NCBI GenBank assembly: GCA_963731655.1
Contig: CAVSWL010000003.1
Location: 24,443-88,442 of the forward strand
Direction: 5' to 3'
DNA: 64,000 nt
Origin: an uncultured Gammaproteobacteria bacterium
GTDB taxonomy: Bacteria > Pseudomonadota > Gammaproteobacteria > JAAEPA01
Positions 34,356 through 51,425 of the stretch are shown here, in pieces (the first letter of the stretch is position 1; every line of letters begins with the position of its first letter). Position numbers and translations under genes: made by a program. The notes below the pieces were generated by a model. It had not been told where the DNA came from. It saw nothing but the letters and a program-made list of their open reading frames with translations, and made no database searches.

Positions 34356-34510
34356 ACGTGAAGCGGAATGAGCCCCAACAGCAGCTCGTGACCGGCCCGC
34401 ACGGCCTGCGGGGTGGCGTCCTTCATGGCGGCTGTTGATTAAATCCCATTTACTCCGACAATCACGGCAAAATGCTGCTGGTGCCCAGGCGGCTGTATAT
34501 CAGGATAAAG

Positions 34511-34805: not shown

Positions 34806-36083
34806 TTACCCATTAGGTATTACGTCCCCATTATTCAGAAATCCTTGCAATGCTACCGAATCTTCCCTCGCCATCACGTCCAGTGAAACTATCGTAATCC
34901 AACAATTACGCATCCCTTTGAATTGCAGCGGATAAGATCCGGCCAACCCTCGCTCCGCTGGATAGATCAACGCCAAGTGATCGACGCCGTAGCGGTTGGC
35001 ATAGGCTTGCATTTGGTACATATCGCCCTGCGAAACGCCGAGCTTGTGGTCAGTTGCGTCCAACAATTTCCATTTCGCATCCGCGAGCAGGGTTACCTGA
35101 TTATCCTGATCGAGTAAAGCGATATCAGGCTTCATTTGGAAAACGGACTTATCTATGTCCAGACGGTGGGCAAGATATTTTCGTGGCCCTTGCTCGCGCA
35201 AGCGTAGACCTTGCCGTCTCGCATAGCCCCGCATGATAGCGGCCACCCAGGTTTCGAACAAACGGTTCATGTCGAATAGCAGCGAGAAAGCCTTGCCGGA
35301 ACCGGCTAAAACATCGGGGTTAAGACCGCGGACGAATATCTTGCATTGATCGATTACCGCCTGGTATCGTGCATTGACACGATCGATAACCAAGCGATCA
35401 AAACTTTCACCAGTGATTGACACATCACGGACACTGTCAAAACTCATCAATAATTCGGTCACACGCTTTCTCGCCAATGGCGAGCGGGTTTTTGGCAGCA
35501 ACAAACGCAAAGTAAATTTGATGATACGATTTAGCGGGATATCTTCGCCGAGTTCGTCGTAGCGGCAATACAAACGTTCCCGGTGAAACAGGTTATGCTT
35601 CAACTGCTGAGCGGTGAGCAGCCGGCCCCGGAGCACCGGCAAGTTCTCTTCTCTGTTAGTGTACCGCTTGATTTTACCCTGGACGATCTGAGCTTGAAGT
35701 TCTTCGCAAAAGTGCAGTATAAAAACATCCAGTAGGGTATGTTTCTGAATATTGACCGATGCTTGTCCTCCACGATGGCTGCGTAATTGCTTGGCTTTCT
35801 TTAACATCCGCACCAGCGCATCTCGGCAGGAGCCGGGATCATCTTCTTTGCCGTGGATTTTCGGTAGAATCTCCAGGGTGAGATCACCCAATTGAATAAC
35901 CCCGCAATACTGCGTCCATTTGATGCGGTTGTGCCCCCAGCGGAACGTGTTGCACGGCAGACTGCTTTCAATTTTAGACAACAACCGGGCGTGTTTCCGT
36001 CCCAGTGCCCTTTGGCCAGCGTGCCGGTTATCGACGATGGGTAGCGACTCGTGTTCGATACAGCTGATGATATCGGCAGCCAT
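34806..36083 (-). CDS. mcrC: McrC endonuclease subunit
   Basis: 425 aa with a C-terminal PD-(D/E)xK motif (PDIALLD..LLADAKWK). It lies 2 nt downstream of mcrB. Confidence 0.85.
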   Translation of the reverse strand: MAADIISCIEHESLPIVDNRHAGQRALGRKHARLLSKIESSLPCNTFRWGHNRIKWTQYCGVIQLGDLTLEILPKIHGKEDDPGSCRDALVRMLKKAKQLRSHRGGQASVNIQKHTLLDVFILHFCEELQAQIVQGKIKRYTNREENLPVLRGRLLTAQQLKHNLFHRERLYCRYDELGEDIPLNRIIKFTLRLLLPKTRSPLARKRVTELLMSFDSVRDVSITGESFDRLVIDRVNARYQAVIDQCKIFVRGLNPDVLAGSGKAFSLLFDMNRLFETWVAAIMRGYARRQGLRLREQGPRKYLAHRLDIDKSVFQMKPDIALLDQDNQVTLLADAKWKLLDATDHKLGVSQGDMYQMQAYANRYGVDHLALIYPAERGLAGSYPLQFKGMRNCWITIVSLDVMAREDSVALQGFLNNGDVIPNG

Positions 36084-36085
36084 AT

Positions 36086-37570
36086 TTAACCACCGGTGCG
36101 CTTATAAATTTTACGCACCGCATCGGGGCTGATGTCTTCAATCCGAGCGACCCTATAGTCAATCATGTCCTCGAAATCGTCGTGATCAAAACCCAACACA
36201 TCCACGTTGCTGCGAGTTTCATGGATAATGATTTGTGGGTGTAGGGGTTGATTCTCTGCATCCGCATCGCGTAATACCAACTGAATCCGGCGCCAGTCAT
36301 CATAGAAATATTCCTGCAGCAACGGCACCAATTGATTCAGCAGCACGTCTTTTAACGCAGCGAAATCCCGCACTTTGCATAAATACGCATGCCCCAACAT
36401 CAAGTCCCGGTTCAGCAAGAAACGAAGGCGCTTGTTCATCGCTTCCAACAATGCCCGCAGATTAATGACCCCACCTTCGCCATCCTCGATATAGCCGTCA
36501 CCACGGGAGCCCCTGATGACGCCCGCATCCGGCATCATTTCCTGAAATCTGAAACGGCGGCGCAAGGCGGTATCCAACAACGCGATGGAACGGTCAGCCG
36601 TGTTCATGGTGCCGTAGATGTCCAGATTCTTCGGCACCGTAAAGGCATCGCCGGAATACGGCAAGGTGATCGACAAGCCTGCCGCGAGGCTGCCGTCCGG
36701 TTTATAAGTCGCGCGTTTGTCCTGCTCAATTAAGGTAATCAGCTCACCGAAAATCTTGGCGATATTGCCACGGTTAATCTCGTCAATAAAAATGGCGTAA
36801 CGGTTTGCCGCATCATTTTGAGCGCGTTGGCAAATCCGCCGAAACACACCGGGGACCACCCGATAAACCAACTCGCCCGATTCTTCGTCTTGCACCGGCC
36901 GGATGCCTTCCACAAAATCCTCATAGCTGTAGGCTTGATGAAAGGTGACAAACTCGTAGCGGGTTTGAGCGTTTACTGCTGATGTATATTCCGCTTTCTT
37001 TCGATTGAGCTCGTACGTTTTACCTGTGCCAGGAGGGCCGTAGAGGATTAGATTAGTCGCCTCTGCGACCTCGGAAATGTCTTCGGTCATCGGCTTGGAA
37101 GGGGAAAGATTAGATAACTGATCCCACAATTTTTCTAGTTCCTCCGCACTGCGTTTTTTAATTTCTATTCCGGACGCCTGGGGCCACCATTGCTGATTGT
37201 CGATCGTGATTGCCGCAAGGTCTTTTTCGGTGATGAAATTCTCTTCGAATAAATCGAGAATGCGGATGTATTCAATATCCACATAGCGCCGGGATTTTTC
37301 TTTCGTTACATCCCCACTTATCTCATCTGAAGAAAATGATTCATAGGGCTCGGATACGATGTGACCCAAACCCATTATGCCTTTGGGCGATTCACCTACA
37401 CGTATCAACCAGGCCTTATCCCCCACGGATATTTTTTGACTTGCACAGCGCCTTTTGTGGACAACCGTAGCTCCTTGCCGTGTTCTTTGGATGTCTTCAG
37501 CCAAATCCGTCCATTCTCCCTTCCGAGGGTTCCAACAAAAGAGCCAATGGGATGGTGAGGTATCAGTCAT
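36086..37570 (-). CDS. mcrB: McrB AAA+ GTPase with an N-terminal PUA/EVE-like domain
   Basis: LILYGPPGTGKTY, FIDEINRGNIAKIFGEL and GTMNTADRSIALLDTALRRRF. The N-terminal ~90 aa (HWLFCWNP..GDKAWLIRVG..GIMGLGHIV) resemble a PUA-like reader fold. Confidence 0.9.
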   Translation of the reverse strand: MTDTSPSHWLFCWNPRKGEWTDLAEDIQRTRQGATVVHKRRCASQKISVGDKAWLIRVGESPKGIMGLGHIVSEPYESFSSDEISGDVTKEKSRRYVDIEYIRILDLFEENFITEKDLAAITIDNQQWWPQASGIEIKKRSAEELEKLWDQLSNLSPSKPMTEDISEVAEATNLILYGPPGTGKTYELNRKKAEYTSAVNAQTRYEFVTFHQAYSYEDFVEGIRPVQDEESGELVYRVVPGVFRRICQRAQNDAANRYAIFIDEINRGNIAKIFGELITLIEQDKRATYKPDGSLAAGLSITLPYSGDAFTVPKNLDIYGTMNTADRSIALLDTALRRRFRFQEMMPDAGVIRGSRGDGYIEDGEGGVINLRALLEAMNKRLRFLLNRDLMLGHAYLCKVRDFAALKDVLLNQLVPLLQEYFYDDWRRIQLVLRDADAENQPLHPQIIIHETRSNVDVLGFDHDDFEDMIDYRVARIEDISPDAVRKIYKRTGG

Positions 37571-37573
37571 AGT

Positions 37574-37608
37574 CGTTTATCGTTGATCGGTTATCGGTTA
37601 TCGGTTTT
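37574..37608 (+). repeat. heptamer array A: 5 tandem units (CGTTTAT CGTTGAT CGGTTAT CGGTTAT CGGTTTT)
   Basis: Read directly. It begins 4 nt beyond the mcrB start codon and lies 5' of the plus-strand PIN cassette. Confidence 0.9.
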
Positions 37609-37650
37609 TTATCTCTTGAGAAAAAACGGAGCATTTGTACAATTGTCTTT

Positions 37651-38040
37651 ATGAACATTTTGGCAGATACGAATATATTTTTAGCGGTTGTTCTGGATGA
37701 GCCGGAAAAAGACCGTATCATCCAACTCACAGCAGAGGCTGATCCCATCGCGCCGGAAATATTGCCGTATGAAATTGGTAATGCGCTATCCGCCATGATT
37801 AAGCGCAAGCAGATTACGCGGGATGAAGCGTTATCTGCGCAAAAAGCTACAAGCTTTATCCCTGTGAGGTTGATCCACATAGATGTGCCATTGGCCCTAA
37901 AACTTGCGATTGCATGCAATATCTACGCGTATGACGCTTATTTCCTACAGTGTGCAAAATCCTTAAGCCTTCCGCTTTTAACACTCGACAAGCGCATGAA
38001 ACAAATAGCCACACGGCTTAATATCGACGTGTTGGAGTAA
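37651..38040 (+). CDS. PIN-domain toxin (VapC-like)
   Basis: 129 aa with ILADTNIFLAVVL (first acidic residue) and AYDAYFL. On the opposite strand to the surrounding operon. Confidence 0.8.
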   Translation: MNILADTNIFLAVVLDEPEKDRIIQLTAEADPIAPEILPYEIGNALSAMIKRKQITRDEALSAQKATSFIPVRLIHIDVPLALKLAIACNIYAYDAYFLQCAKSLSLPLLTLDKRMKQIATRLNIDVLE

Positions 38041-38046
38041 CCCTTA

Positions 38047-38265
38047 ATGAAAGTATTTACCTATTCAGAAGCCCGCCAGAATCTTGCTAAGCTATTAAAG
38101 CTTGCGCAAAAAGAAGAGGTCGAAATTCGTAGACGAGATGGCACTTTGTTTTCCTTAACGTTAAAGAAGAAAAAAGCAAAATCACCTTTCGATGTTCCCG
38201 GAATAAAAACGAAAGCGACGACTGAAGAGATTTTGGATGCTGTTCGGGAATCGAGAAAAAGTTAA
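38047..38265 (+). CDS. Phd/YefM-type antitoxin, encoded downstream of its toxin
   Basis: 72 aa. MKVFTYSEARQNLAKLL..EEVEIRRRDG is a Phd/YefM N-terminal pattern. It lies 6 nt after the PIN gene. Confidence 0.65.
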   Translation: MKVFTYSEARQNLAKLLKLAQKEEVEIRRRDGTLFSLTLKKKKAKSPFDVPGIKTKATTEEILDAVRESRKS

Positions 38266-38275
38266 CAGTTATTTT

Positions 38276-38333
38276 CGGTTGTCGGTTGTCGGTTGTCGGT
38301 TAACCGTAAACTGATAACTGATAACCGATAACG
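38276..38333 (+). repeat. heptamer palindrome B: (CGGTTGT)x3 CGGTTAA | CCGTAAA (CTGATAA)x2 CCGATAA
   Basis: Hand pairing around the GGTTAACC centre (38298-38305) gives ~22 Watson-Crick pairs plus 4 G:T on the plus strand. It fills the gap between the Phd stop and the MTase stop. Confidence 0.9.
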
Positions 38334-38334
38334 T

Positions 38335-40422
38335 TTAAATCCCGACAACAACCCGCTGCTCGCTGCGCTCAATCTCGCTAAGCGCATCAAACGCTTCCAA
38401 CACCAACCGTCTTGTTCGATATTCGCCGAATTCTTTGATCTCCTTGTTCTTTAGGACACGAAAGGTTTCTGAAGGGTAGTCCTCGCCCATCACGTCCGCG
38501 GGATCGAGGATGTAGCGCAGCTCGTCGCGGGTCAGACCGTAAAGTTTTGCATAGTAGGCGTCCAGTTCGGATTTGAGTTGGTGGCGACGTTCGGGGTCGA
38601 AGGGGAACGGTTCGCCGAAGTAGCCTAAGTCTTCGGCGAAGGGTTTTAGGTCGTGGGTGGTGTAGGCGAGTTCTAGGACGCGGGGGAGGATGAATTTTTG
38701 GTCAGTCCGGGCGTATTGATCGGGAGAAAGAAATGGCAATTGTTTTGGAATGTAGAAATTGAAATTTGCTCCACCTATCTTCTGCCGTGCAATAAAATCA
38801 AATATTAAGCTGATGCAATTTGCGTAAAATGCGGCTATTTGAGGAGTGTGGATATCCTGAGAGGGTATTAGCAGGTGAAAACTATTTCCGACAGGTGATA
38901 TAGGAATAATGCATGGAATTACGCTTCTTTCATCTGTTGTTCTGGCAATTCCTCGCCACCCCAATAAATACTTGGGCCGCCGCGATTCCAGCAGCGGCCA
39001 AACCAGCATCCAAGGATCGGCATTTGCTTTCAGCGACTTTGCCAGTTGCGTAGTTTCCTCGTAGCTCAGTGGATAGTCGTGTTGCATTTGCCGCGCGGCT
39101 TCGGTCTGCGGCGACGGGGTGGTGGCGAATAAATCACCGTTGGTCCCCTGCGTCGGAGAAGCTAACAAACTATCGAATAGTGACCTGTATTTCTTTCCCG
39201 GATGCAGCGCCAGATGCGCGCCGGCGGTCCAGAGTTTCAAAGCGGTGGTGAGCGCTTCAGCATCTTGCTTTTTAGCGGCATCCAGCACCGCTTTAGGCGC
39301 GCGGGCGGTGCGCAGGGTGACTTCGTTTTTTGCCACCCAATAGCGGGGCCGGTTGACGTAGTTGGGGGCTTGCTTCTCCGCCAGCGTGCAATCCCGGCTG
39401 GTTTCGCCGTCGGTTTCGTAGGTCGCCCAACGGTGGTCGTAGTGGTGGATCATTTTTGCTTCATATAATCGTAAATGGTTGTCAGTTATCAGTTGTCGGT
39501 TAACGGTTTTTGCTTTGCTGTTAACCGGTAACTGATAACCGGTAACCGATAACTCCTCGAGTTGGTTATGAGTCGTAAACAAGCCGCTGTCGTTGGACAT
39601 ATCAAATAACCGAGCGAACTTGATGCCCCAAGAATTTTGCTCCGGCTTTTTGCCACTTGCCTCGCGGATCAATACCGGTGCAGAGCGGTAGAGTTTTTTG
39701 GTCAACTCGGCGTCCATCTGGGAGCGAAATACCGGGCAGGTTTTGGTGTTGGGGTTGATGAGCTCGAATTCTTCTCTGCTCAAACTGAAGCGCCGTCGAT
39801 CATCTTTAAGTTGCGTGGGCTGGGTGGCGAAAAACGCCAACTCTGCCTTCGGCACGTTATAGCCCATAGTCAGCAGACAAAATTTGTAACTGCGATGTAC
39901 GCCGGGAAACAATGCATCACGATTCTCGAAATCATACAAGTTGGCCAAACGATTCCCTGCCGCCAACCAACCGAAGAACAACTTGGTCGAGTCGTCGGTG
40001 GCGATGCCGGTAGGTACAATCGTACCCGCTCGACCGTCCGGGTTGATCGCTTTGGCGAAGTGCTCGGCAAAAATTGCATAGAGATTGACGTCGCCGCGTC
40101 CCGTCAGCGGATAGCGCCCCGATAGACGCGCAAAGGCGCTGCCGCCTTCTGCGCTTTGTTTGGCCCGCATAAAATCATCGTATAAGGTTCGTTCGGCCGG
40201 AGTATCGCTATTAGTCAGGGCGTTGATCAGACGGTTGCGTGCGGCGGCATTGGCGGCTCCCGCAATTCCGGTGCTGCGCGACGCGAAAAATTCCTTTTCC
40301 TGTAATTTGATGCGCTCCCAAGGCGGATTCCCCAGCATCACGTCAAATCCACCGTTCCCTTCTTCATCAAACACGCTCGGAAACGCCAGTGGCCAGTGAA
40401 AGAACTGGTGGGTTTCGGCCAA
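38335..40422 (-). CDS. N6-adenine DNA methyltransferase, 3' fragment (catalytic NPPW motif plus C-terminal domains)
   Basis: 695 aa with FDVMLGNPPWERI (motif IV) and LYEAKMIHHYDHRW. It joins the upstream fragment through a 1-nt frameshift near 40424. Confidence 0.85.
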   Translation of the reverse strand: MAETHQFFHWPLAFPSVFDEEGNGGFDVMLGNPPWERIKLQEKEFFASRSTGIAGAANAAARNRLINALTNSDTPAERTLYDDFMRAKQSAEGGSAFARLSGRYPLTGRGDVNLYAIFAEHFAKAINPDGRAGTIVPTGIATDDSTKLFFGWLAAGNRLANLYDFENRDALFPGVHRSYKFCLLTMGYNVPKAELAFFATQPTQLKDDRRRFSLSREEFELINPNTKTCPVFRSQMDAELTKKLYRSAPVLIREASGKKPEQNSWGIKFARLFDMSNDSGLFTTHNQLEELSVTGYQLPVNSKAKTVNRQLITDNHLRLYEAKMIHHYDHRWATYETDGETSRDCTLAEKQAPNYVNRPRYWVAKNEVTLRTARAPKAVLDAAKKQDAEALTTALKLWTAGAHLALHPGKKYRSLFDSLLASPTQGTNGDLFATTPSPQTEAARQMQHDYPLSYEETTQLAKSLKANADPWMLVWPLLESRRPKYLLGWRGIARTTDERSVIPCIIPISPVGNSFHLLIPSQDIHTPQIAAFYANCISLIFDFIARQKIGGANFNFYIPKQLPFLSPDQYARTDQKFILPRVLELAYTTHDLKPFAEDLGYFGEPFPFDPERRHQLKSELDAYYAKLYGLTRDELRYILDPADVMGEDYPSETFRVLKNKEIKEFGEYRTRRLVLEAFDALSEIERSEQRVVVGI
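39477..39553 (+). repeat. heptamer palindrome C, in-frame inside the methyltransferase gene
   Basis: Arms at 39477-39506 and 39520-39553 with a 13-nt loop. It is translated on the minus strand as ..ELSVTGYQLPVNSKAKTVNRQLITDN.. without a stop. Confidence 0.9.
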
Positions 40423-41230
40423 GTGCGGTGACCATTTGATAGACGCCTACCGGTAACATGCCGCCGTCGGCGAGCAGCTTCAGGTGGGCATTGGTGGGAA
40501 CGCTGTCCCGGGTTTCTGCGGTTTTGGGCGCAAAGAAAGCCGCGGTAAAGAGGTCCTCCAGTAGCCGTTCGTCTTTGGACTGCTGATCTTGCCGGGCTTG
40601 CTCGAAGGCGCGGCGCTTGGCTTCGACCTGTTCCACGCTGTCTTCCGGCATGGTTTCAAAATCGTTAAACGGAAGCGAAGCCATGTTCAACGACACGGCG
40701 ATATCCTCGCCGGCTATTTTGTTGATTTTTCTCAGTTCGGTGCAGATTTTTTTATCGTCCCCCGACAATGCCTTGTAAGCATCGTCCGGGATGCCGTTCT
40801 CCAACAGCGCTGGATCCAGCACGCCCACCAAAGCATTACCGCATCGAACATGGGCGTCCAGAAAACTTAGAGGTTTCCCCGGCTCGATGGACTCCAGCCA
40901 CAGGCCGGTCTTACACAGTTCGATGGCCAAGGGATTGATATCCACCCCATAAATACTGTGCCGTACAACTTCGCGCAGGGCATGGCGATAGTGTTGCTCT
41001 GTGGATTGATCGAGCCCCGCGTCGATACGCGCCAACTCCATCGCCAGGCGACGCGCCGCCGCCAGCAGGAAATGGCCCGAGCCGCAGGCTGGGTCGCATA
41101 CGGTAATTGAAAGAATTGACTCGCGGGGATTTTTGGGATTCCGTTGCAGGCGGTCCTCGATCACCGGCACCAGCGCCGATTGAATCAGCTCCTGCACCAG
41201 GGAATCGGGAGTGTAATAGGAACCGGACAA
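40367..41230 (-). CDS. N6-adenine DNA methyltransferase, middle fragment (SAM-binding motif I)
   Basis: 287 aa with SGSYYTPDSLV and VCDPACGSGHFLL. The frame is open upstream to the MITE border (..FLGDDEDEQATNGHARKL). Confidence 0.85.
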   Translation of the reverse strand: MSGSYYTPDSLVQELIQSALVPVIEDRLQRNPKNPRESILSITVCDPACGSGHFLLAAARRLAMELARIDAGLDQSTEQHYRHALREVVRHSIYGVDINPLAIELCKTGLWLESIEPGKPLSFLDAHVRCGNALVGVLDPALLENGIPDDAYKALSGDDKKICTELRKINKIAGEDIAVSLNMASLPFNDFETMPEDSVEQVEAKRRAFEQARQDQQSKDERLLEDLFTAAFFAPKTAETRDSVPTNAHLKLLADGGMLPVGVYQMVTALGRNPPVLSLATGVSERV

Positions 41231-41282
41231 TTTACGTGCGTGACCGTTGGTTGCTTGCTCGTCCTCGTCATCACCTAGAAAG

Positions 41283-41490
41283 CATACGTCACAAGTTAAC
41301 CAAATTAGGAAAATGTCAAGTTCTCTGGTAAAGAAAATTTTACTTTAATAATCATTAGATTACATGTCTGCCCGATGTGTTGTGGTCAGAATGGCAAAAG
41401 CGATTCACTTTTTAGGTTTTTTTAACATATTGTTTTAATTTAGATTTTATTTCTTGACAAATCCACTTTTTTCCTAACTTGTGGCGAATG
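41283..41490. mobile_element. 208-bp MITE-like insertion with a 9-bp target-site duplication
   Basis: TSD CCTAGAAAG at 41274-41282 and 41491-41499. Terminal inverted repeats are CATACGTCACAAGTTA and CATTCGCCACAAGTTA (14 of 16 match). AT-rich with no ORF. Removing the element plus one TSD rejoins ..WRLSFLG|DDEDEQ.. in frame. Confidence 0.8.
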
Positions 41491-42851
41491 CCTAGAAAGC
41501 TTAAACGCCATTGACCTTGGGTGCGCAATTGCGGAATCAGCTCCAGCAGGGATTCGTATACCGAACCGAATTCTTCGGTGTCCATATCCCGGTAATTAAC
41601 CAGGGACAGTACGCCCTCATATTGGAAGTAACCAAGCTTAAACAGCGCCTCATACAAAAAGCGGTTTTCCAGTTCACAGAATTCCAACGCCGCGCATTGC
41701 TCGACGCTAAATATGCCGCCCAGTGCGGGTTGGGCTAGTAAGGACTGGCCGTTTGCAAAACCGGCAAAGATGATCAACAGTTGCTGCCAGGCGTCGCCAT
41801 AGTGGTCATGGTGGGCGCGCAGCCGCGAGCGCTTGCGCAATTGGGCGACGCTGTAGCTTTGTTGGTACAAGCTCCTGGCAGCGGTGTAATCTTGCCCATC
41901 ATGGTCTACGGGTAAAAGGGCCAGATCGCGGTCTTCCGCAGTCAGCAAGAACAGCAGGCGGTACACCAGGCGCAATACCTGTTGGTAATACTGCTCGGTG
42001 GACAGCTCGCCGCTGCTGAGCTGGTCGCGCAGCGCTAGGTTTTGCGGGTGCGCCACAAATCCCGTGCCCAACGCGCGCAAGGCGTCTGCCACGCCGTAGC
42101 GCAACTCGCCCAATACGCGTTCGCCTTCGGCCGCGCCTTTCTGCCGCCATTGTTCCAGCCAACAGTTCTCTAATATGCCATTCTGAGGCTCTGTGCGGCT
42201 GTGATGCAGTAACAACCAAAGGGTTGCGAAGTCGGGATAGTTCTCTTCGTCAAATAAGCTGTCGAGATCCACCTCGATATAGGCCGGGCGGGTCATGGCG
42301 GGATTGTTGCGCAACACGCACAACTGAACACCGTTGGAAACCAGCGCCCACAGGCAGGCGTTTTCCGCGTTCAGGTATTCCTGGGCGAGACCCACGGGGG
42401 AGCGTTTATTGCCATCCTGACCGAAGGCGACATCGCCCTTATCCAATTCTTTGCCGGCGTCGCATAACACCAAGGGCACGCTGCCGTCGTTGGCGAAATG
42501 AGTGATGGGAAATTCGCGCTCACCGATGCGCCGCGGCTGAGCGGATTCAACGCGGAAACCCAAAACATCGTTTAACAGGGGCAAGAGCCAGAGTTTTACC
42601 GCCAGTCGTTCCGGATGAATATCGGTGCGCTGACGATGTTCGTTGTAAGCTTGCCAATGACTTTGCGCAATACGCCAATAACGGCCTAGCTCGTCCGCCA
42701 GCTTCAAGCATTTCGGAATTCCGTAGTCGGCCGGAGTTTGGCCAGGCAAGGCGTACTTGCGCGCCTTCCGCAACACCTGGCTGGTCAGCAGTCCACCGAC
42801 GACGCGGATGGATTCGAACAGTTGGTCGTTCGGATTAGTTTCCTTACTCAT
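41412..42851 (-). CDS. N6-adenine DNA methyltransferase, 5' fragment (N-terminal domain)
   Basis: 479-aa ORF. Residues after ..QGQWRLSFLG are read-through into the MITE, so genuine coding ends at about 41491. Confidence 0.75.
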   Translation of the reverse strand: MSKETNPNDQLFESIRVVGGLLTSQVLRKARKYALPGQTPADYGIPKCLKLADELGRYWRIAQSHWQAYNEHRQRTDIHPERLAVKLWLLPLLNDVLGFRVESAQPRRIGEREFPITHFANDGSVPLVLCDAGKELDKGDVAFGQDGNKRSPVGLAQEYLNAENACLWALVSNGVQLCVLRNNPAMTRPAYIEVDLDSLFDEENYPDFATLWLLLHHSRTEPQNGILENCWLEQWRQKGAAEGERVLGELRYGVADALRALGTGFVAHPQNLALRDQLSSGELSTEQYYQQVLRLVYRLLFLLTAEDRDLALLPVDHDGQDYTAARSLYQQSYSVAQLRKRSRLRAHHDHYGDAWQQLLIIFAGFANGQSLLAQPALGGIFSVEQCAALEFCELENRFLYEALFKLGYFQYEGVLSLVNYRDMDTEEFGSVYESLLELIPQLRTQGQWRLSFLGIRHKLGKKWICQEIKSKLKQYVKKT

Positions 42852-42868
42852 TGGTCCTTTTCTAAAAA

Positions 42869-42924
42869 GTTATCGGTTATCAGTTATCGGTTTCCGGTTA
42901 GCTGCTAACCGATAACCGACAACC
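42869..42924 (+). repeat. heptamer palindrome D
   Basis: GTTATCGGTTATCAGTTATCGGTTTCCGGTTA - GCTGC - TAACCGATAACCGACAACC. It lies between the MTase start (42851) and the four-helix-bundle gene stop (42926). Confidence 0.9.
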
Positions 42925-42925
42925 T

Positions 42926-43276
42926 TCAACGATTATTCAAAGAATCATGTAACGCCTGAAGCATTCTTGAAATTGATTTCAATTCCTTAATCAGTGCTTT
43001 CGCTTCCACGTCTGGAAGCAGCTTGACGGCTTGCGCGATAAACACCTGAGTTCTCAGTTCCGCGGCCGACCCCTTTGATATGTTTGTAAATCGCTTAAAT
43101 TCAGCAACACTGTTTCTCTCACTTCCTTCCGCAACATTAGAAGGAATGGATACCGCCGCGCGCAGCATTTGATCCTTCATTGCGTAATCGCGACAATCTC
43201 TCAGTAATTCATACAGACGTACCGTCAACCGACACGACTTCTTCCAAACCTCCAACTCTTCAAACCCAACACTCAT
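42926..43276 (-). CDS. four-helix-bundle protein (23S rRNA intervening-sequence / S23p family)
   Basis: 116 aa. FEELEVWKKS, LRAAVSIPSNVAEGSER and SKGSAAELRTQ are the hallmark of the TIGR02436-type family. Confidence 0.85.
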   Translation of the reverse strand: MSVGFEELEVWKKSCRLTVRLYELLRDCRDYAMKDQMLRAAVSIPSNVAEGSERNSVAEFKRFTNISKGSAAELRTQVFIAQAVKLLPDVEAKALIKELKSISRMLQALHDSLNNR

Positions 43277-43288
43277 CCCTTATCCCCA

Positions 43289-43349
43289 CCGACAACCGAC
43301 AACCACGACAACCGACAACCGATAACCGATAACCGATAACCGATAACCC
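43289..43349 (+). repeat. heptamer array E: ~8.5 tandem units (CCGACAA x4 with one 9-mer, then CCGATAA x4)
   Basis: Read directly. It fills the gap between the four-helix-bundle start (43276) and the SNF2 stop (43352). Its orientation is complementary to arrays A and F. Confidence 0.9.
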
Positions 43350-43351
43350 CT

Positions 43352-44581: not shown

Positions 44582-46257
44582 AATCGGATCTTTATCGCTG
44601 ATTTTAGCTGTTCGATTTTTTCCTGTCGCTCGACCGGTGTCAGATCACCGGTTACGAAAATCACTTCACGGTGCTTGAATCGTTCGGCGAGTTGTTCCGC
44701 CAGGTATTCCGCGGTGGCGATATATCGGCAAAAGATGACCGGGTGATAACCCTCGTCCAACATGGGTTTGAGCATTTTCAGCAATGTTTTGAGTTTGGGA
44801 TCACCGCTGCTTTTGAGCCGTTGCGCGCGCCCGATCAATTGATTCAGGCGATCGATATCTTCAGGCAAGGCCGCCCCAGGTTCGGCGTCGTCAAAGCTGA
44901 GGCCATCGTCCGCGCCATCGAGCACACTGGCGGCCCCCTGGGTCTCCAGCGCCGCCTGCAATTGGTGTTCGTTTTCAGGGTCGGCATCAAGAGTGGTGGT
45001 TAAACGGGTGTTCAGCGCGCGAATCGCCGCCTGGGGAGAGGATGAAATACAACGCAACAAGGCCAGCGCCGCCCACCAGTTCATGCGCGCTTTAAGCGTG
45101 CCTTGATGTTCACGTTCGACCAGTTCGCGCGCATAGGCCAAGACGTCTTGGAAAATGGCCTCCCATTCATCGCTGAGCTGGTAAGTTGCCTCGGTGGTTA
45201 AGCGCTCCGGAAACAGGGTCATATCCTGCCATTCTCTGATATCTTGGCGGCGCCGCTGAATAAAATGTTCAGCCAATGCCAGCCGCAAAGGATGGTTCGC
45301 GCTTTCAATCTGTATGAGTTCTGCGAATTCGGGTTTGAGTAAGGACAACAAGTTGTAAAAGGCTTCTTCGTCGCCGCTGTGCGGCGTGGCGGTTAACATC
45401 AGTAAATGACGCGAACTCTTGTTGGCCAAATCTTTGAGCAGCTCGTAACGCTGTTGCCGTCCCTGGCCCCTGTGGGAGCAGGTATGCGCCTCGTCGACGA
45501 TGATAAAATCGGGGCATTGCTCGGCGAAGGCGTCCCGGCGGTTTTTATTCTTGACATAATCCAGCGAGACGATAGTAAACGGGTATTCGGTAAATATTGA
45601 GCTGCCGGCCGGTAAGCTGCGCTCCAGGCGGCCCGCGGTCGTCGAGCGCACCACGGCGGTCTCGATATGAAAACGGTTCTTGAGCTCTTCGTGCCATTGA
45701 TCGCAGAGGTGCGGTGGGCACAAAACGCTCAGCCCATCGATTTCACCGCGATCCAGCATCTCCCGAGCAATGAGCCCCGCCTCGATCGTTTTGCCGATGC
45801 CGACATCATCTGCGATGAGCAAGCGAATCACGTCGAGTTTCAGGGCCATCATCAGTGGCACGAGCTGGTAGGCGCGAGGTTCGAGGGCAATGTTGCCGAA
45901 ACTGCGAAACGGCCCGGCGCCGGCGCGCAGTTTCAGCATCAGCGCATCACGCAGCAACAAGCCGGCGGATTGCGTACCGGCTTGATTCAATTCCGGATAA
46001 GGAAAGCGGGCTGGGACGATCGCTTCGCGTTCCAGCACGGGTTCAATCACGGTTTCCGCATCGTCACCCCCGCCCAGGGGACGAAGATGGAGTCTGTCGG
46101 CTTCGCTCTGCGGCAGCACTACCCATTCACGCCCGCGCGCACGCACGATGCCTCCGGGTGTAAACGTTATTCGGTTATCGGTTCTCGGTTGCCGGTTATC
46201 AGTGGGCATTAGGTGGCTCCGAAGATGTCGGGGTAGCGGGCGATGATCGCGGGCCAC
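44506..46257 (-). CDS. SNF2-family helicase, 5' fragment (probable start at ATG 46209)
   Basis: ADDVGIGKTIEAG, IIVDEAHTCS and LMLTATPHSG. The frame is lost near 44597, where ..EQLKSA should continue DKDPILVATD. The start at 46209 gives a TAATG overlap with the upstream stop. Confidence 0.85.
   Translation of the reverse strand: MARDHRPLPRHLRSHLMPTDNRQPRTDNRITFTPGGIVRARGREWVVLPQSEADRLHLRPLGGGDDAETVIEPVLEREAIVPARFPYPELNQAGTQSAGLLLRDALMLKLRAGAGPFRSFGNIALEPRAYQLVPLMMALKLDVIRLLIADDVGIGKTIEAGLIAREMLDRGEIDGLSVLCPPHLCDQWHEELKNRFHIETAVVRSTTAGRLERSLPAGSSIFTEYPFTIVSLDYVKNKNRRDAFAEQCPDFIIVDEAHTCSHRGQGRQQRYELLKDLANKSSRHLLMLTATPHSGDEEAFYNLLSLLKPEFAELIQIESANHPLRLALAEHFIQRRRQDIREWQDMTLFPERLTTEATYQLSDEWEAIFQDVLAYARELVEREHQGTLKARMNWWAALALLRCISSSPQAAIRALNTRLTTTLDADPENEHQLQAALETQGAASVLDGADDGLSFDDAEPGAALPEDIDRLNQLIGRAQRLKSSGDPKLKTLLKMLKPMLDEGYHPVIFCRYIATAEYLAEQLAERFKHREVIFVTGDLTPVERQEKIEQLKSAIKIRFWSPPTVYRKGLTCRINSPRSCITT
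46165..46199 (+). repeat. heptamer array F: 5 units (CGTTATT CGGTTAT CGGTTCT CGGTTGC CGGTTAT)
   Basis: Read directly. It lies in the first ~14 codons of the SNF2 ORF, encoding TDNRQPRTDNRI on the minus strand. Confidence 0.9.
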
Positions 46258-47516
46258 TGGTTTTGTTCTTCCGGGAAGCGGATCACCGTCAGACCCGCCG
46301 CTTCCAGTTGCGCGGCCAACTCGTCGTCCAGATTCTTTTGATTAGGGTGCTCGTGATGCGGACCATCGATGTAGATGGTTGCTTGGTGTACCTGGTAGAT
46401 AAAATCCGGCCGGGTATTGAACCTCTCGATGACCACCTGCGCATCGTCGGGCAGCTGATAGCCGTTTTGTTTTAAATACACGACAAAGGCTTGTTCCGGC
46501 GAGTTGTCGGAGCTATTGCTGAGGGGATTATCGACTTGCTTATCATGGCCGCGTCCGCCGTTGGGGGTTTTAAGCGTCGCGTTTGCTAATTGCTTGAGCA
46601 GTTCCAGGACATCGGGATGTTGCCGGTCGATCAACTTGTGATCCATTTGGTTGTAGTAGCTAAGTAAACAGCGATAACAACCGGCTTCACAATCGGGATT
46701 GTTGTTGTGATGCGTTCGCCAATCGTCGTTGGTTTCGAAGTGGCAGAGCTGCAATGCACGAGTGGCGATCCTGCCCAGAGCGTCTTTATCGGTGGTCAAT
46801 CGGGTTAATACTCCGGCGCCGCCTTCGGCCGCCTCGTAGAATAAAATCGCATAGCGCTCATCGCGATTCGGCAGAGGTTCGCAGATCAATTCCGATTCTT
46901 CGATCTGATATTCTTCTTCGATGCCGCGTTTCAAGGCATATTGCAATGTCGTGAGCACTTCCTCATCGAGCCGATTTTTGGGTCTGAGGATCAGCACGTT
47001 GCGCCGATCCTCGACATAGGGTGTAATGCGATCGATCGTGCGCTCTGGTTTGGCGAAATCCTTTTCGTGTTCAGCCGGCGCCTGTTCGTCCTTAGCCCAT
47101 TCGCCGGTTACGGTATCGATATTGAATCCAAAGATTGACGCTTCTCTGCGGCGCCGCCAGCCGAGGTTCATGCGCCAAACCGTCGCGGCCGGGGCATACT
47201 GCATGCTAAGCAAGGGTTCATCATCGTGGCCAATTTCGCGCTGGACCACATTGAGCCCATTGCCATTTTTGGCGAACTGCACCGTGGTCTGCATGTCGTA
47301 GCCTTGGCGTTGGCGTTCTTCTTCGTCACAGGTGATACGCAATACGCGCCGAGTACTGACATTTTCGACTCGATAAAGATTGTCGATGCGTTTGCCACCC
47401 TCGATGGGCTCACCGCAGGCATTGCACAGCTCATCCTCAAGCTGTTGCAGGAAATGCCCATATCCGCAAGAGGGGCATAAACGAGCTTCTTTTTTGGCCA
47501 GCACGAACGATTCCAC
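46209..47516 (-). CDS. DUF1998 (DrmB-like) zinc-ribbon protein with a C-terminal DUF559/Vsr-like endonuclease domain
   Basis: 435 aa with CPSCG..CNACG, ITCDEEERQRQGY and CEAGCYRCLLSYYNQ (DUF1998 signature). The C-terminus RPDFIY..TIYIDGPHHEH..DDELAAQLEAAGLTVIRF is a DUF559-type PD-(D/E)xK pattern. Confidence 0.75.
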   Translation of the reverse strand: MESFVLAKKEARLCPSCGYGHFLQQLEDELCNACGEPIEGGKRIDNLYRVENVSTRRVLRITCDEEERQRQGYDMQTTVQFAKNGNGLNVVQREIGHDDEPLLSMQYAPAATVWRMNLGWRRRREASIFGFNIDTVTGEWAKDEQAPAEHEKDFAKPERTIDRITPYVEDRRNVLILRPKNRLDEEVLTTLQYALKRGIEEEYQIEESELICEPLPNRDERYAILFYEAAEGGAGVLTRLTTDKDALGRIATRALQLCHFETNDDWRTHHNNNPDCEAGCYRCLLSYYNQMDHKLIDRQHPDVLELLKQLANATLKTPNGGRGHDKQVDNPLSNSSDNSPEQAFVVYLKQNGYQLPDDAQVVIERFNTRPDFIYQVHQATIYIDGPHHEHPNQKNLDDELAAQLEAAGLTVIRFPEEQNQWPAIIARYPDIFGAT

Positions 47517-47522
47517 GTCTTG

Positions 47523-50255
47523 TCAATCGTTAATACCGAGCATGACCTTTTTTACGCGGTACTGACTGCCCTCGTGATAAATCAGGCTAAGCGGGCCGAA
47601 TTCGGAAATCGCCAGGAAACGCGGCCGGGCCAGAAAGCTGTCGCGGCCCACATTGCCTCGGCGGCCCTGGATATACGCTAACAGCGGCAAACGCGGGAAG
47701 TTATAGCCCGGTAAAAAGCCTTGGCTGGCGAGATAACGGTACGTTGAGAAATCTGAACTCATTTCACTGTGGGCGTTGAGCAACAAATTGATCTGCGTTT
47801 TTGCTTCGCTATAGCGGCGATCCGCCGCCTTTCGATCCCGCTCAACTGAGGCTGGATTGGCGATGATTCGATGGGCTTTTTGTAGCTGCTCTTCGGTTGA
47901 GGCATAGAGATCGCGCCAACGCCTGAGTGATTGGTCGAAACTGGCGAAGGCATTGTTAACTTTTGCGTTCAGCCAGTCTGCGTAAGCCTGTTCCAGGCTC
48001 ACATCTGACTCCAGCCAGACGCCTTGCGCCTGGATTAATCCGTCGCCTAACATCTTGAGTAAATTTAAACCGCGGCTAGCGGTCCTTTGGCGCACCTCGT
48101 CCGAGTCCATTTGTCGGGTAAACTCTTGCAGCAGCGGCATAGCATCGGGCTGATTCATATCGAGCATACCGTTTACCGTTTTTGGTAAGGCTTTGCCGGT
48201 TTCATTTAGCCACACTGCGTGCAGATGACTCGCGACCAGATCCTGATTTGCGAGATCCAATGTCGGTGGACTCACGTGGCCGTGCACCATCCGCGCCGGA
48301 TCGCTGAAGAAATATTGGTCATGCGGACTGAGCGCCGCGCAATAGGTGATGACCAATGCGGGTTGCCCGGAGCGTCCGGCCCGTCCGGAACGCTGCGCAT
48401 AGTTCGCTGGTGTCGGCGGAACGTTGCGCATATAAACGGTATTCAACGAGGCGATATCGACGCCTAATTCCATCGTGGGCGAACAGAACAGCGTTTTGAG
48501 CTCGGCGCTGCGGAATAGTTTTTCACGTTCTTCGCGGTCTTTTATCTCCACCTGGGCGGTGTGCTCCCTAGCCTGCAGATCAAACAGCGTGCGACCGCCT
48601 TGTCGGAGTATTTCCTTAATCGTGGTGTATAACGTGCGGAAGTATTTGTTATCGGAATGGTAAGGGTTGGTCGGATCGGGTTCAGGTCTCTCCTCAACCG
48701 CTTTCCATTGCAAAAACTCACCCAACAGCTGATAGCCTTGGACGCCGCCGCCCCCTTCTACTGGTTCTACCAAACCATAGGCCTGCAATGCTTGCATGAG
48801 GCTAAGAATTAGATCCGGGTAATTTTCATCGTTGAATTTGGGTAAGAAATGAAAATCTTCGCGCCAGATCTCCCTGCGTTTGAGAGCAAGCCCCAGCGTT
48901 GAGCGGCTGGATGCGGTGACGAGATTAAAATCATTGTTATGCCGCCGGGGTTTACTATCCAGCAGCAAAATACAAGCCGATTGCAAATATTCCTCTTCAG
49001 TGAAAGCCCAGGGTTCTTTTAAATACTGATAGCTTTGGCTCTTAAATCGCTCCTGTTGGATGGGGTCGAGGTAGCGGCTTTTTATACAGAGGCCTCGGCG
49101 CATGGTATCCAGCACTGCTTTAAGCGCGCGATAGCGGTTTTCAGGCGAAGCGTTTTTTAATTCTGGACAGGGTAGGTTTTCCCACTCGGCTTGGTCGCGG
49201 CACAGCTCTTCCAGGCCCACATAATCGATGCGCAACAATCCGAGTTGTTCAAGATTCGGATTATTAAAACGCCAGCCGCGGCGCAGATCGAAGTAAAGGC
49301 GGTAAGCCAACACGTTTCTGACGGCTTCTTCCGCCTTTCTCCGCCCAGGCCCTTTGGCAGCTGGATTTTCAAGATAATCGGCGCCGTCTTTATCAAAGCC
49401 CAAACTTTGAAATACCGCTTGCGATAGGTCGCTATCGGTCAAATACTCCTGGTCCGCACCTTCGACTGCGGCTAATAAGCCGGTCCGTAGCAAGAGAATT
49501 TGCACAAAATCGTTGTAATGGCCCGCTTGCAACGATGCATCCTGACGATTATCGGTAAAACCCAGCAGCTTTTTCGCGTCGCTGGTTAATTCGGTGTCGC
49601 GCTCCAACATGTAACGCAGAGCGGAAATAGTGAGTACAGTGGTCGCCGAAGAGCGCCCTTCACCACTGAGTGAAGTCAATCGCGTTTCGTCCCGCCCACG
49701 AGCCGCATGCGACATTCCACAACTCAAACAGAAACGGAAGCTTCCCGGTACGAACCAACCAGGGGCTCCTTTGTGACTAATTTCACCCCAAGGCGTAACG
49801 ACAATCTGTTGCGGTTTAAATTTTTTGTAACTGCTTTTAAGTTTGTAATCACCGTTCTTTGATTCGAGCCAATGCTCCGGATAATTATTCGAATCGCTTG
49901 CGTCCCACTGGCTAAGCGGATCGAACATGAAAAAGCCCCAATGGTCGTCTTCTTCTGCGCTGTCGCGTTCGTCGATCGGGCGCGGATTTAAAACACGTTT
50001 GTCGTCTTCCATTTCAAGCCATACCGTGTGGTACTCCTGACCGCATTGCCGGCAGAAATGCAGACTGAAAAATTTTTTACTGCGATCGCCCGGTAGGAAT
50101 TGTTGGCCGGTCAAATCGAATTCACGTTTTTCTGCAGGCTCAAGCGTGGAGAAGACATTGTTAGCCCCCGAAATAAACTGGTGCAAACGGAAAGCAAACA
50201 AAGGCTTGCCTTTGTTATCCCGGCAGTGATAGGCGGACAACAGGAACTGGCGCAA
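47523..50255 (-). CDS. DExH helicase (DrmA/COG1205-like), 3' part, downstream of an in-frame TAG
   Basis: 910 aa in the track, with the frame open up to 50423. Helicase C motifs are ELGVDIASL and YAQRSGRAGRSGQ. The C-terminal GFLPGYNFP..IYHEGSQYRV resembles the beginning of a DUF1998 region. Confidence 0.85.
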   Translation of the reverse strand: MRQFLLSAYHCRDNKGKPLFAFRLHQFISGANNVFSTLEPAEKREFDLTGQQFLPGDRSKKFFSLHFCRQCGQEYHTVWLEMEDDKRVLNPRPIDERDSAEEDDHWGFFMFDPLSQWDASDSNNYPEHWLESKNGDYKLKSSYKKFKPQQIVVTPWGEISHKGAPGWFVPGSFRFCLSCGMSHAARGRDETRLTSLSGEGRSSATTVLTISALRYMLERDTELTSDAKKLLGFTDNRQDASLQAGHYNDFVQILLLRTGLLAAVEGADQEYLTDSDLSQAVFQSLGFDKDGADYLENPAAKGPGRRKAEEAVRNVLAYRLYFDLRRGWRFNNPNLEQLGLLRIDYVGLEELCRDQAEWENLPCPELKNASPENRYRALKAVLDTMRRGLCIKSRYLDPIQQERFKSQSYQYLKEPWAFTEEEYLQSACILLLDSKPRRHNNDFNLVTASSRSTLGLALKRREIWREDFHFLPKFNDENYPDLILSLMQALQAYGLVEPVEGGGGVQGYQLLGEFLQWKAVEERPEPDPTNPYHSDNKYFRTLYTTIKEILRQGGRTLFDLQAREHTAQVEIKDREEREKLFRSAELKTLFCSPTMELGVDIASLNTVYMRNVPPTPANYAQRSGRAGRSGQPALVITYCAALSPHDQYFFSDPARMVHGHVSPPTLDLANQDLVASHLHAVWLNETGKALPKTVNGMLDMNQPDAMPLLQEFTRQMDSDEVRQRTASRGLNLLKMLGDGLIQAQGVWLESDVSLEQAYADWLNAKVNNAFASFDQSLRRWRDLYASTEEQLQKAHRIIANPASVERDRKAADRRYSEAKTQINLLLNAHSEMSSDFSTYRYLASQGFLPGYNFPRLPLLAYIQGRRGNVGRDSFLARPRFLAISEFGPLSLIYHEGSQYRVKKVMLGIND

Positions 50256-50423
50256 GTAACGTTCACAATGCTGTTTATTTAAGCCAGAATCGCTAGATAA
50301 TTGTTCGGCGGCCCATTGCAGGCTCCTCGGTTTTGCCCGGACCCAACGGCCTTCTTCTTTGTTGATTCCCAGCGTGAGTTCGATCCATGCCGATACAGGG
50401 TGCTCGCGAACCGCCTTGAATTT

Positions 50424-51425
50424 CTAGACGGCGGGCAAGGGTTTTTCCAGCGCAGCAGCCAACTTTGCCCCCGTCGGTTTTTCAATCATCGGGGTTTGGC
50501 GTTGGAGCGTTTCGGTGATGATGTGTTCCGGCTTGACTTTACCGCCGAAAAGTTTAGTGGCTACGTCGGCTACGGCGCCATTGCGTGCGGCAAGACTCCC
50601 CTCGCTGGCCATGGTCGCCGATGTGCCTATGCACTGCACCTGCGAATTTAGCGCTTCACGCACCCGTCGCACTAACATGGCGACATCGGCGCCTTGGCGG
50701 CCGCGGTAGGTATGGAGCTCATCGAGAATCAGGAAATTCAGTCCCTCGGCAGCCCGGATCACCTTGCGATCCAGATCGTCCTGCCGCGTCATGAGCAGTT
50801 CCAGCATCATGAAGTTAGTCAGGATAATGTCCGGCGGACAGGCAGCTATCGCCTGGCGTTCTTCCTGAGATTCTTGTCCAGTATAGCGGCCGTAGGTGAC
50901 TGGCTTGTTGCCCCCATAGTGACCCAGGAATTTATCCAATTCTTCCTTTTGAGAATTCACCAAAGCATTCATCGGATAAATAATGATGGCCTTGATCGAA
51001 GGTTTCAGATCAATCGCCTTGGCTTTTAACACGGCATCAACGATAGGAATGATATAGCTAAGCGATTTACCCGACCCGGTGCCCGTGGTAAGTACATAGC
51101 TTTCTTTGCGGTGCGCGATTTCGATGGCGTCTTGTTGATGTTTGTGAAGCTGGGCCGATATCCCTGGACTGCCCTTGCCGTCTCGACCAAATCGAAAAAT
51201 ATTAGCGCATTCGGCATGCAACACCCCCTTGGCAACCAACTGTTCGACATTGTCCCCGGCGACAAAGGCGGGATTGAGCTGGATGAGAGGCGCAGGCCAG
51301 TAATTGCCTGCCTCATAGCGTGCGGAGACGAATTGCTGGATATCCGGTGCTTTTATTGTCGTGAAGCTGGTCGTGAATGCCTTGTAATCGGCAATCACCG
51401 CATCGCGGTATTCGAAAACGTCCAT
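50424..51425 (-). CDS. DExH helicase (DrmA/COG1205-like), 5' part ending at an in-frame TAG
   Basis: 333 aa with TTGTGSGKSL (motif I), LILDELHTYRG (DExH) and GTSAT (motif III). It is in the same frame as the 47523..50423 ORF. Confidence 0.85.
   Translation of the reverse strand: MDVFEYRDAVIADYKAFTTSFTTIKAPDIQQFVSARYEAGNYWPAPLIQLNPAFVAGDNVEQLVAKGVLHAECANIFRFGRDGKGSPGISAQLHKHQQDAIEIAHRKESYVLTTGTGSGKSLSYIIPIVDAVLKAKAIDLKPSIKAIIIYPMNALVNSQKEELDKFLGHYGGNKPVTYGRYTGQESQEERQAIAACPPDIILTNFMMLELLMTRQDDLDRKVIRAAEGLNFLILDELHTYRGRQGADVAMLVRRVREALNSQVQCIGTSATMASEGSLAARNGAVADVATKLFGGKVKPEHIITETLQRQTPMIEKPTGAKLAAALEKPLPAV

Follow-up and report, generated by a model that had tools for sequence, protein, structure and literature searches.

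A probable ARMADA type I cassette, most likely decayed, beside an McrBC operon in a Competibacter-like gammaproteobacterium

The window analyzed here, that is, the whole stretch of 64,000 nucleotides taken from contig CAVSWL010000003.1 of an uncultured gammaproteobacterium (positions 24,443 to 88,442), contains at 34806-51425 a co-directional, minus-strand block in which helicase, DUF1998, SNF2, N6-adenine methyltransferase (MTase), McrB, and McrC domains are present. We conclude that this block is very probably a type I cassette of ARMADA (the disARM-related Antiviral Defense Array; Bell et al., 2025, 10.1101/2025.09.15.676423), with a toxin-antitoxin pair and then an autonomous McrBC operon after it, all on an island of ~24 kb in a Competibacter-like gammaproteobacterium, and that the ARMADA part has most likely decayed. 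A first-pass annotation of the same DNA had described four large proteins followed by mcrB-mcrC and had likened them to class 1 DISARM. The domains, strand, and coordinates that it gave are correct and its protein sizes are about right, but the helicase and DUF1998 proteins are the product of one gene, and three extra genes lie within the block: a 23S_rRNA_IVP gene between the SNF2 and MTase genes and, encoded on the other strand in the space separating MTase from McrB, a toxin-antitoxin-like PIN/Phd pair. The corrected map, with the pieces into which the large genes are broken, is as follows:

46209-51425, minus strand: ArmC-like YprA-family helicase-nuclease pseudogene, a single frame interrupted by 2 stops
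51425-50424, minus strand: helicase piece 1, 333 aa, Pfam DEAD
50255-47523, minus strand: helicase piece 2, 910 aa, Helicase_C
47516-46209, minus strand: DUF1998 piece, 435 aa, MZB/DUF1998 and weak DUF559
43352-46257, minus strand: ArmA-like SNF2 helicase gene (BrxHII/RapA/DrmD-like), one 1-nt frameshift
46257-44506 and 44581-43352, minus strand: SNF2 pieces, 583 and 409 aa, SNF2
42926-43276, minus strand: four-helix-bundle gene, 116 aa, 23S rRNA intervening-sequence protein family (23S_rRNA_IVP; Pfam PF05635, E 2.4e-32)
38335-42851, minus strand: ArmB-like PglX/DrmMI-like N6-adenine MTase gene, in three pieces
42851-41412, 41230-40367, and 40422-38335, minus strand: MTase pieces, 479, 287, and 695 aa, NPPW motif
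38047-38265, plus strand: Phd/YefM-like open reading frame (ORF), 72 aa, PhdYeFM_antitox 8.4e-7, 29.1 bits against a cut-off of 29.8
37651-38040, plus strand: PIN toxin, Pfam PIN 2.4e-12
36086-37570, minus strand: McrB, 494 aa, Pfam EVE and AAA_5
34806-36083, minus strand: McrC, 425 aa, Pfam PF10117, E 5e-80; NCBIfam McrC 3.8e-30

The single helicase gene is evident from tblastn and frame analysis. A single frame (-3) covers the region 51425-46209; its alignment with the 1,740-aa protein of a Desulfatitalea relative (locus L046) spans 1,742 columns, and it also aligns end to end with the 1,733-aa protein of locus L005. It is broken by two in-frame stops, TAG at 50424-50426 and TGA at 47523-47525; alignment with relatives shows that both fall at poorly conserved linker positions. 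For 67 of 73 related loci, the frame analysis shows the helicase and DUF1998 regions as a single ORF of about 1,730-1,800 aa, and the intact Desulfatitalea homologue carries DEAD, Helicase_C, MZB, and DUF559 in its one protein. The DrmA/DrmB-like, two-gene look of the window is therefore due to the TGA stop that splits one frame, not to the architecture. A separate DUF1998 gene had been considered as the normal state (the 120 best homologues are all ≤760 aa); this was overturned by the frame analysis of the 80 genome loci described below.

The domain order of the rejoined gene (1,738 aa as reconstructed) is DEAD/RecA1, an inserted region with CxxC pairs (FCRQCGQEY and FCLSCGMSH), Helicase_C/RecA2, OB-CON-DUF1998 (MZB), and a C-terminal nuclease of the Vsr/DUF559 type. 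With the PADLOC models, all three pieces match DruE3/DruE1 best (E 1e-44 to 1e-47), and the DUF1998 piece matches only the C-terminal part of the DruE models; the DrmA models give marginal matches to the helicase motifs (1e-6 to 1e-10), and no PADLOC DrmB model matches the DUF1998 piece. No DrmA or DrmB model in NCBIfam matches at E 1e-5 or better. Sequence searches of the solved structures rank two ~2,000-aa helicases (9tu7_Y and 9wae_A) first and MrfA/YprA next; no DrmA or DrmB chain is among these matches. On these sequence comparisons, the helicase falls in the Druantia/ARMADA branch and not with DrmA.

The DUF1998 piece alone finds no match in a sequence search of the solved structures, so a fold search was needed. 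Using an AlphaFold2 model of this 435-aa C-terminal piece (mean predicted local distance difference test score, 81.8), Foldseek identifies MrfA (6znp_A, E 3e-6) and DrmB (7s9v_B, E 7.5e-5); for the last ~100 residues, it identifies the Vsr-like catalytic domain of I-Bth0305I (3r3p_B, probability 1.0, TMt 0.61). Across 22 homologues, D371 is invariant and D384 and H388 are nearly invariant (numbering of the 435-aa ORF); the Pfam DUF559 score, 19.5 bits in the window, falls short of the cut-off (20.6), which L046 exceeds with 23.8 bits. The model and the motif suggest that the C-terminal domain is a Vsr-type PD-(D/E)xK nuclease that is predicted to be active, and the earlier claim that a nuclease fold different from PLD is fused to the DUF1998 protein is borne out.

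The SNF2 gene, whose conserved part begins near 46176, matches DpdE (PDLC02853, 4e-143), DrmD (3.9e-61), and BrxHII (1.8e-35) in PADLOC, and its closest solved structure is RapA (4e-17); the NCBIfam DISARM_DrmD model scores 227 and 102 bits on the two pieces against a cut-off of 610. The MTase has the S-adenosylmethionine motif VCDPACGSGHFL (DPACGSG is seen) and the catalytic NPPW in MLGNPPWERIK; it matches DrmMI (PDLC02643, 3e-43, over part of the model) as well as type IIG and PglX models in PADLOC, Eco57I, N6_Mtase, and MmeI_Mtase in Pfam, and, weakly, the PglX models in NCBIfam. Among the named defense families in PADLOC and NCBIfam, DrmD and DrmMI are the nearest to these two genes, with clear homology.

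Related loci were retrieved with an alignment of DUF1998 homologues (a single DUF1998 protein used as the query retrieved none); at least 546 relatives were confirmed among the 600 pattern matches listed, and the best 80 loci were kept. The kept relatives span Pseudomonadota, Chloroflexota, Planctomycetota, Actinomycetota, Bacillota, and others; a megablast search of 34000-52000 against all complete Escherichia coli genomes and the PLSDB plasmids gave no match. When the window pieces are used in tblastn, the helicase, DUF1998, SNF2, and MTase regions are found in the same order and on the same strand in all 80 loci. The SNF2 gene adjoins the YprA gene in every locus and is one ORF in 67 of 70; in most relatives, the start of the MTase alignment lies no more than about 100 bases from the point where the SNF2 alignment ends, and the MTase is in one frame in 39 of 55.

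This is the arrangement described for ARMADA type I: a YprA-like helicase that is nearest DruE, with a fused OB-CON-DUF1998 region and a predicted active C-terminal Vsr nuclease, then a BrxHII/RapA-like helicase, and then a PglX-like MTase (10.1101/2025.09.15.676423). The published YprA tree places ARMADA with Druantia, apart from the DISARM/Dpd clade, and BrxA-like, β-barrel zinc, and MarR-like helicase inserts serve as clade markers (Bell et al., 2025). Two of the contigs that Table S1 of the same paper lists for ARMADA type I helicases, CABPSP010000013.1 (Pandoraea anapnoica) and CYGX02000043.1 (Paraburkholderia ribeironis), hold L035 and L049 of our set, in which the genes share 46-64% identity with those in the window and are colinear with them. 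No UvrD/GajB or RelE domain was found in the genes profiled in the block or its flanks. The suggestion in the first-pass annotation of a 'variant architecture' was correct in spirit, but the variant already has its name (Bell et al., 2025); the architecture is known as ARMADA type I, and this copy is an ordinary, probably dead example.

In 13 of 53 related loci (L035, L038, L039, L041, L044, L046, L047, L049, L051, L054, L057, L064, and L077), the MTase is directly followed by a co-directional gene for a protein of ~660 aa with a P-loop (GHGVGKTS) and a long coiled coil (e.g., L047:19100-21184 and L046:18858-20864). This protein has no confident Pfam match, only a weak one to DUF2326; its gene is possibly a fourth, optional component of ARMADA type I that occurs for the most part in Burkholderiales.

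Class 1 DISARM consists of DrmA, DrmB, DrmC, DrmD, and DrmMI (Ofir et al., 2018, as given in papers that cite it), and the block could be read as such a system that has lost or replaced DrmC. The resemblance noticed in the first-pass annotation is real for the SNF2 and MTase genes (vide supra); in addition, the DUF1998 piece shares the DrmB fold, and the helicase and DUF1998 appear as separate ORFs in the window. However, those ORFs are separate due to a TGA within one frame, the two regions being fused in 67 of 73 relatives; the helicase scores with DruE and only marginally with DrmA, the DUF1998 piece has no DrmB match, and the score with the DrmD equivalog model is far under its cut-off. 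The DrmA/DrmB-type pair proposed earlier thus does not stand; placement with DruE is an outcome that the proposal itself had named as speaking against it. Neither DrmA nor DrmB is among the sequence matches to solved structures, and the published YprA tree separates the two groups. The statement that the block has no PLD gene agrees with the PADLOC and Pfam results, but the alternative that a PLD gene was simply deleted here is unsupported: no HKD motif occurs in the flank ORFs of the related loci, no PLD family is among the 25 most frequent Pfam families for the 108 ORFs downstream of the MTase (53 loci), and the only clusters of flank ORFs in the relatives are the ~660-aa P-loop/coiled-coil protein (13 loci) and McrB (3 loci). 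We regard a DISARM identity as very improbable. A Druantia variant, that is, DruE with new partners, would account for the best PADLOC models of the three helicase pieces and for the ~2,000-aa helicases that are closest among the solved structures; the Druantia-type label is, however, given because PADLOC 2023 has no ARMADA model. No model for DruA-D, DruF/G/M, or DruH matches any gene of the block, in which the partners are an SNF2 helicase and a PglX-like MTase, and the nuclease in the window is of the Vsr type and predicted to be active, in contrast to the PLD of Druantia III and the inactivated Vsr of Druantia I/II (Bell et al., 2025). The chance that the block is a form of Druantia is, in our judgment, close to negligible, and ARMADA type I remains the preferred identity.

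The three ARMADA genes carry five lesions: 2 nonsense codons (vide supra), two 1-nt frameshifts, and a 217-bp insertion. The SNF2 frameshift claimed in the first-pass annotation is present, near 44600-44640 (frame -2 to -1 by tblastn and in a three-frame view) and adjoining an AAAA run, but it is not the sole lesion. Relative to the intact MTases of L046 and L005, the MTase is read in frames -3, -1, and -2, with a 1-nt frameshift near 40425-40480 and the following insertion resembling a miniature inverted-repeat transposable element (MITE):

41287-41490, within the MTase gene: MITE-like insertion, AT-rich, 217 bp, absent from homologues

The insertion is flanked by the direct repeat CCTAGAAAGC at 41274-41286 and 41491-41503, with a 10-nt target duplication, and has 13-nt inverted ends (41301-41313 and 41469-41481); residues 446 and 444 of the L046 MTase abut across it. 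Its 31-nt core is present as a single copy in the window, and the element is a candidate MITE. Stop-codon recoding was considered for the TAG and TGA and rejected: uninterrupted long ORFs occur in other parts of the window, and the stops are of two different kinds. Judging from the reading frames, the ARMADA part is most likely dead, that is, non-functional, in this genome; by the same reasoning, McrBC and the toxin-antitoxin pair are the only parts of the block that remain intact.

Several points weigh against the reading of the block as a decayed ARMADA type I cassette. The experiments on ARMADA cover type II only, and any mechanism for type I would be an extrapolation from them. Two other genes in the window also carry 1-nt frameshifts:

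16870-19615, plus strand: aconitase gene, with an extra C in a C-run near 17890
1306-4258, minus strand: CheB-CheR-PAS fusion gene, split by a single-base frameshift

These frameshifts could reflect sequencing error or genome-wide gene decay, and they bear on how far the indels in the cassette are to be trusted. The host is Competibacter-like, its MaeB being 89% identical to that of a Candidatus Competibacter metagenome-assembled genome (MAG), and the contig name of that MAG (np2-np3) may point to nanopore data; for this reason, the two cassette indels could be sequencing errors. In addition, the TGA at codon 1301 has an in-frame GTG two codons on and lies at the natural DrmA/DrmB split site of DISARM. 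The TGA break alone might be tolerated; it could be a gene fission in the DrmA/DrmB style and thus a snapshot of the origin of the two-gene layout of DISARM.

If all five breaks were sequencing or assembly errors, the cassette would be intact and functional. The frameshifts in the housekeeping genes aconitase and CheB-CheR (one of them in a homopolymer), the AAAA run beside the SNF2 frameshift, and the possible nanopore origin of the genome that is closest by MaeB are in keeping with this explanation. However, sequencing and assembly errors do not take the form of a 217-bp insertion that has inverted ends and a 10-nt target-site duplication, and at two other breaks a base substitution has created a stop codon; neither the substitutions nor the insertion is likely to arise in sequencing. 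The breaks also number 5 in 13 kb of cassette as compared with 2 noticed in about 45 kb of the remaining window. The closest relative (L001/L002; 77-88% identical), which was assembled independently twice, has different lesions of its own (in-frame stops, a DDE transposase inside the SNF2 gene, and an insertion in the DUF1998 tail), and the adjacent DUF1156-MTase/PLD-helicase system is down to stubs (vide infra). An intact cassette is unlikely on this evidence, and we retain the interpretation of decay.

The McrBC genes that follow are of full length. McrB has the motifs GPPGTGKT, DEINRGN, and NTAD, an N-terminal EVE domain (a modified-base reader), and an AAA+ GTPase domain, and it matches solved McrB structures (6ut3, 3.6e-57; 6hz4, 5e-42). 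McrC, which aligns with its relatives over residues 1-413, has DUF2357 and a PD-(D/E)xK nuclease domain (…DIALLD…DAKWK…), and its gene begins 3 nt past the mcrB stop. The claim that McrBC is joined to the block is upheld by the EVE, AAA_5, and PF10117 domains on the same strand as the cassette. As a separate observation, the McrB in the window lacks both the ~110-residue insertion in the GTPase domain (Walker A to FHQAYSYEDF) that is found in ARMADA-linked relatives (L003, L029, and L030) and the ~260-residue N-terminal extension of the Halomonas and Marinobacter proteins.

A frequent association of the DISARM-like YprA/SNF2/PglX cassette with canonical McrBC operons was noted in 2024 by the same group (PMC11090510). 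Among the related loci, McrBC lies beside ARMADA type I in L003, L029/L192, L030, L165, L166, and L190. Of 53 loci, 3 have AAA_5/McrB no more than about 3 kb downstream of the MTase; conversely, ARMADA type I is upstream in 4 of the 12 close EVE-McrB relatives that have 10 kb of upstream sequence (from Desulfosediminicola, Desulfatitalea, a Pseudomonadota MAG, and Marinobacter), and L003 and Halomonas smyrnensis (L030) supply two further pairings. The spacers between ARMADA and McrBC are 0 to 6 kb and hold unrelated genes. With these frequencies and spacers, the pairing is recurrent but facultative. Other toxin-antitoxin pairs occur inside the cassettes of relatives, between MTase and McrB in L003 and between SNF2 and MTase in L001.

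Could ARMADA type I and McrBC nevertheless form one obligate composite system, with McrBC as its nuclease arm? In favor of this, the two sets of genes lie side by side and run in one direction in the window, the same combination is seen again in distant taxa (with McrB 44-75% identical), and the McrBC census calls the association prevalent (PMC11090510). The low frequencies seen from both sides and the variable spacers with unrelated genes are not those of an obligate partner, though; furthermore, ARMADA has its own nuclease domain, and McrBC is intact while ARMADA has decayed, which suggests independent selection. We consider a single obligate system improbable. A looser relation, in which ARMADA type I and the clade of adjacent EVE-McrBC would be a functionally coupled, two-arm module with shared regulation or synergy, is speculative and on balance rather unlikely (the tolerated gene fission at the TGA being a smaller option of the same kind); if such a module existed, the ARMADA arm would hit unmodified DNA and McrBC would hit the DNA that escapes by modification. 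Our preferred interpretation is an autonomous McrBC next to a decayed ARMADA type I cassette.

For ARMADA type II, direct, non-abortive protection has been reported, with all of the genes and the NPPW motif required (Bell et al., 2025). By analogy, the PglX-like enzyme of an intact type I cassette would N6-methylate adenines in a host motif and so mark self DNA. The YprA-family helicase, whose OB-CON-DUF1998 canopy is the same module as in MrfA, DrmAB, and DruE, would load on single-stranded or unmodified invader DNA and translocate; its C-terminal Vsr-type PD-(D/E)xK domain would cut the invader DNA, and the RapA/BrxHII-like SNF2 ATPase, presumably also required, would assist. The expected outcome would be direct, non-abortive clearance of phage DNA. 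McrBC would act independently, with EVE reading modified bases, the GTPase translocating, and McrC cleaving; in this genome, it is likely the only active arm.

The block lies between two copies of a direct repeat of 610 bp, 93.8% identical (32548-33157 and 56624-57233), that is revealed by blastn of the window against itself; a PLDc_2 ORF lies to the left of it:

32548-33157, plus strand: left repeat copy, 5' region and first ~160 codons of an APH/AmgK-like kinase gene
56624-57233, plus strand: right repeat copy, with a truncated APH gene fragment at 56747-57280
31805-32449, plus strand: PLDc_2 ORF, a 192-residue N-terminal stub of a PLD-helicase

The ~24 kb between the repeats contain a MurU-like gene, McrCB, the toxin-antitoxin pair, ARMADA, a glycosyltransferase, and an rve-type transposase. 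The repeats look like the two ends of an island that integrated into, or recombined at, the APH/AmgK-like gene; no tRNA gene that would mark an integration site is present in the window. Remnants of a second defense system lie on the plus strand at 29515-32449: a DUF3780 gene that looks intact, a DUF1156-type MTase of which the first ~84 and the last ~140 of 944 residues are left, and the PLD-helicase, of whose 905 residues ~192 remain before a break that lies about 100 bp from the left 610-bp repeat. The only PLD ORF in the window is explained by this degraded DUF3780/DUF1156-MTase/PLD-helicase system and not by ARMADA. A second direct repeat, of 187 bp and 89% identity, is found at 26864-27050 (upstream of a Na+/H+ exchanger gene) and 58836-59022 (at the start of the malic-enzyme gene).

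Heptamer repeats (ACCGATA, ACTGATA, or ACCGACA) occupy the cassette spacers at 37588-37605, 38277-38336, 42865-42924, 43318-43342, and 46172-46203, and two more copies are inside the MTase coding region (39483-39541). Against a chance expectation of 0.65, there are 13 matches, none of which lies outside 37.5-46.2 kb. Two of the sets, one on either side of the MTase gene, pair up as a 60-nt inverted repeat that resembles a hairpin and has T-runs after it. The heptamer runs may represent terminators or repetitive extragenic palindromic (REP)-like elements. Their pattern, ACCGATAACYGATAAC, was not found in 83 related loci.

The relatives show two further features of the MTase region. The junction of the SNF2 and MTase genes, at which the IVP gene sits in the window, is a hotspot, with inserts of 0.8-4.5 kb in L022, L029, L050, L065, L067, L074, and L078. 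In about 10 loci from different phyla (L011, L012, L013, L016, L018, L024, L028, L031, L032, and L052), the last 290-380 residues of the MTase are in a separate frame, which in every locus except one overlaps the first frame. The position is roughly alike throughout (MTase 3' part, about 17500-18600 in locus coordinates). Instead of random damage, the split could mark a natural two-gene variant or a variable module for target recognition.

Given that ARMADA type I was named in 2025 and its pairing with McrBC was noted in 2024, the finding changes little. The locus is, however, a worked example of misleading annotation: because PADLOC 2023 and NCBIfam are without ARMADA models, its genes are labeled as DruE, DpdE/DrmD, and DrmMI. 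It is also one data point on the decay of defense systems: the modification-dependent McrBC next to the cassette persists, whereas the MTase for self-marking and the two ATPases are disrupted. Intact orthologues for study are available in Desulfatitalea (L046/L166) and Desulfosediminicola (L165), both with McrBC, and in Pandoraea anapnoica (L035).

The known systems can be compared with the block as follows. Class 1 DISARM shares with it a DrmD-like SNF2 helicase, a large DrmMI-like N6-adenine MTase, a YprA-superfamily helicase with a DUF1998 canopy, and a presumed methylation-based discrimination of self from non-self; it differs in that the helicase and DUF1998 of the window are natively one gene, with a fused Vsr-type nuclease in place of the PLD protein DrmC. 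DruE of Druantia is the closest helicase family by hidden Markov models and is likewise a giant YprA-type protein with DUF1998 and a C-terminal nuclease-like domain (that of Druantia III is reported to be a helicase-nuclease acting on intermediates that contain single-stranded DNA); the block lacks the Druantia partner genes, and its nuclease is unlike the PLD of Druantia III. The E. coli K-12 type IV McrBC and the EVE-McrB fusions (Bell et al., 2020/2024) have the same GTPase motifs, a PF10117 McrC with D…D-x-K, the operon layout, and an N-terminal modified-base reader; in the window that reader is EVE and not the DUF3578-type domain of the K-12 enzyme. ARMADA type II (E. coli NCTC 12900 / ATCC 8739; ArmA-D) has homologous SNF2, MTase, and YprA-Vsr proteins but in the reverse order (SNF2, MTase, YprA) and with an essential ArmD, a GajB-like helicase fused to RelE, that is absent here. 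The closest correspondence is with ARMADA type I: the same three genes in the same order, without PLD and without a GajB-RelE fourth gene, and in an McrBC neighborhood; the copy in the window differs in that all three genes are interrupted and that an IVP gene and a PIN/Phd pair have been inserted.

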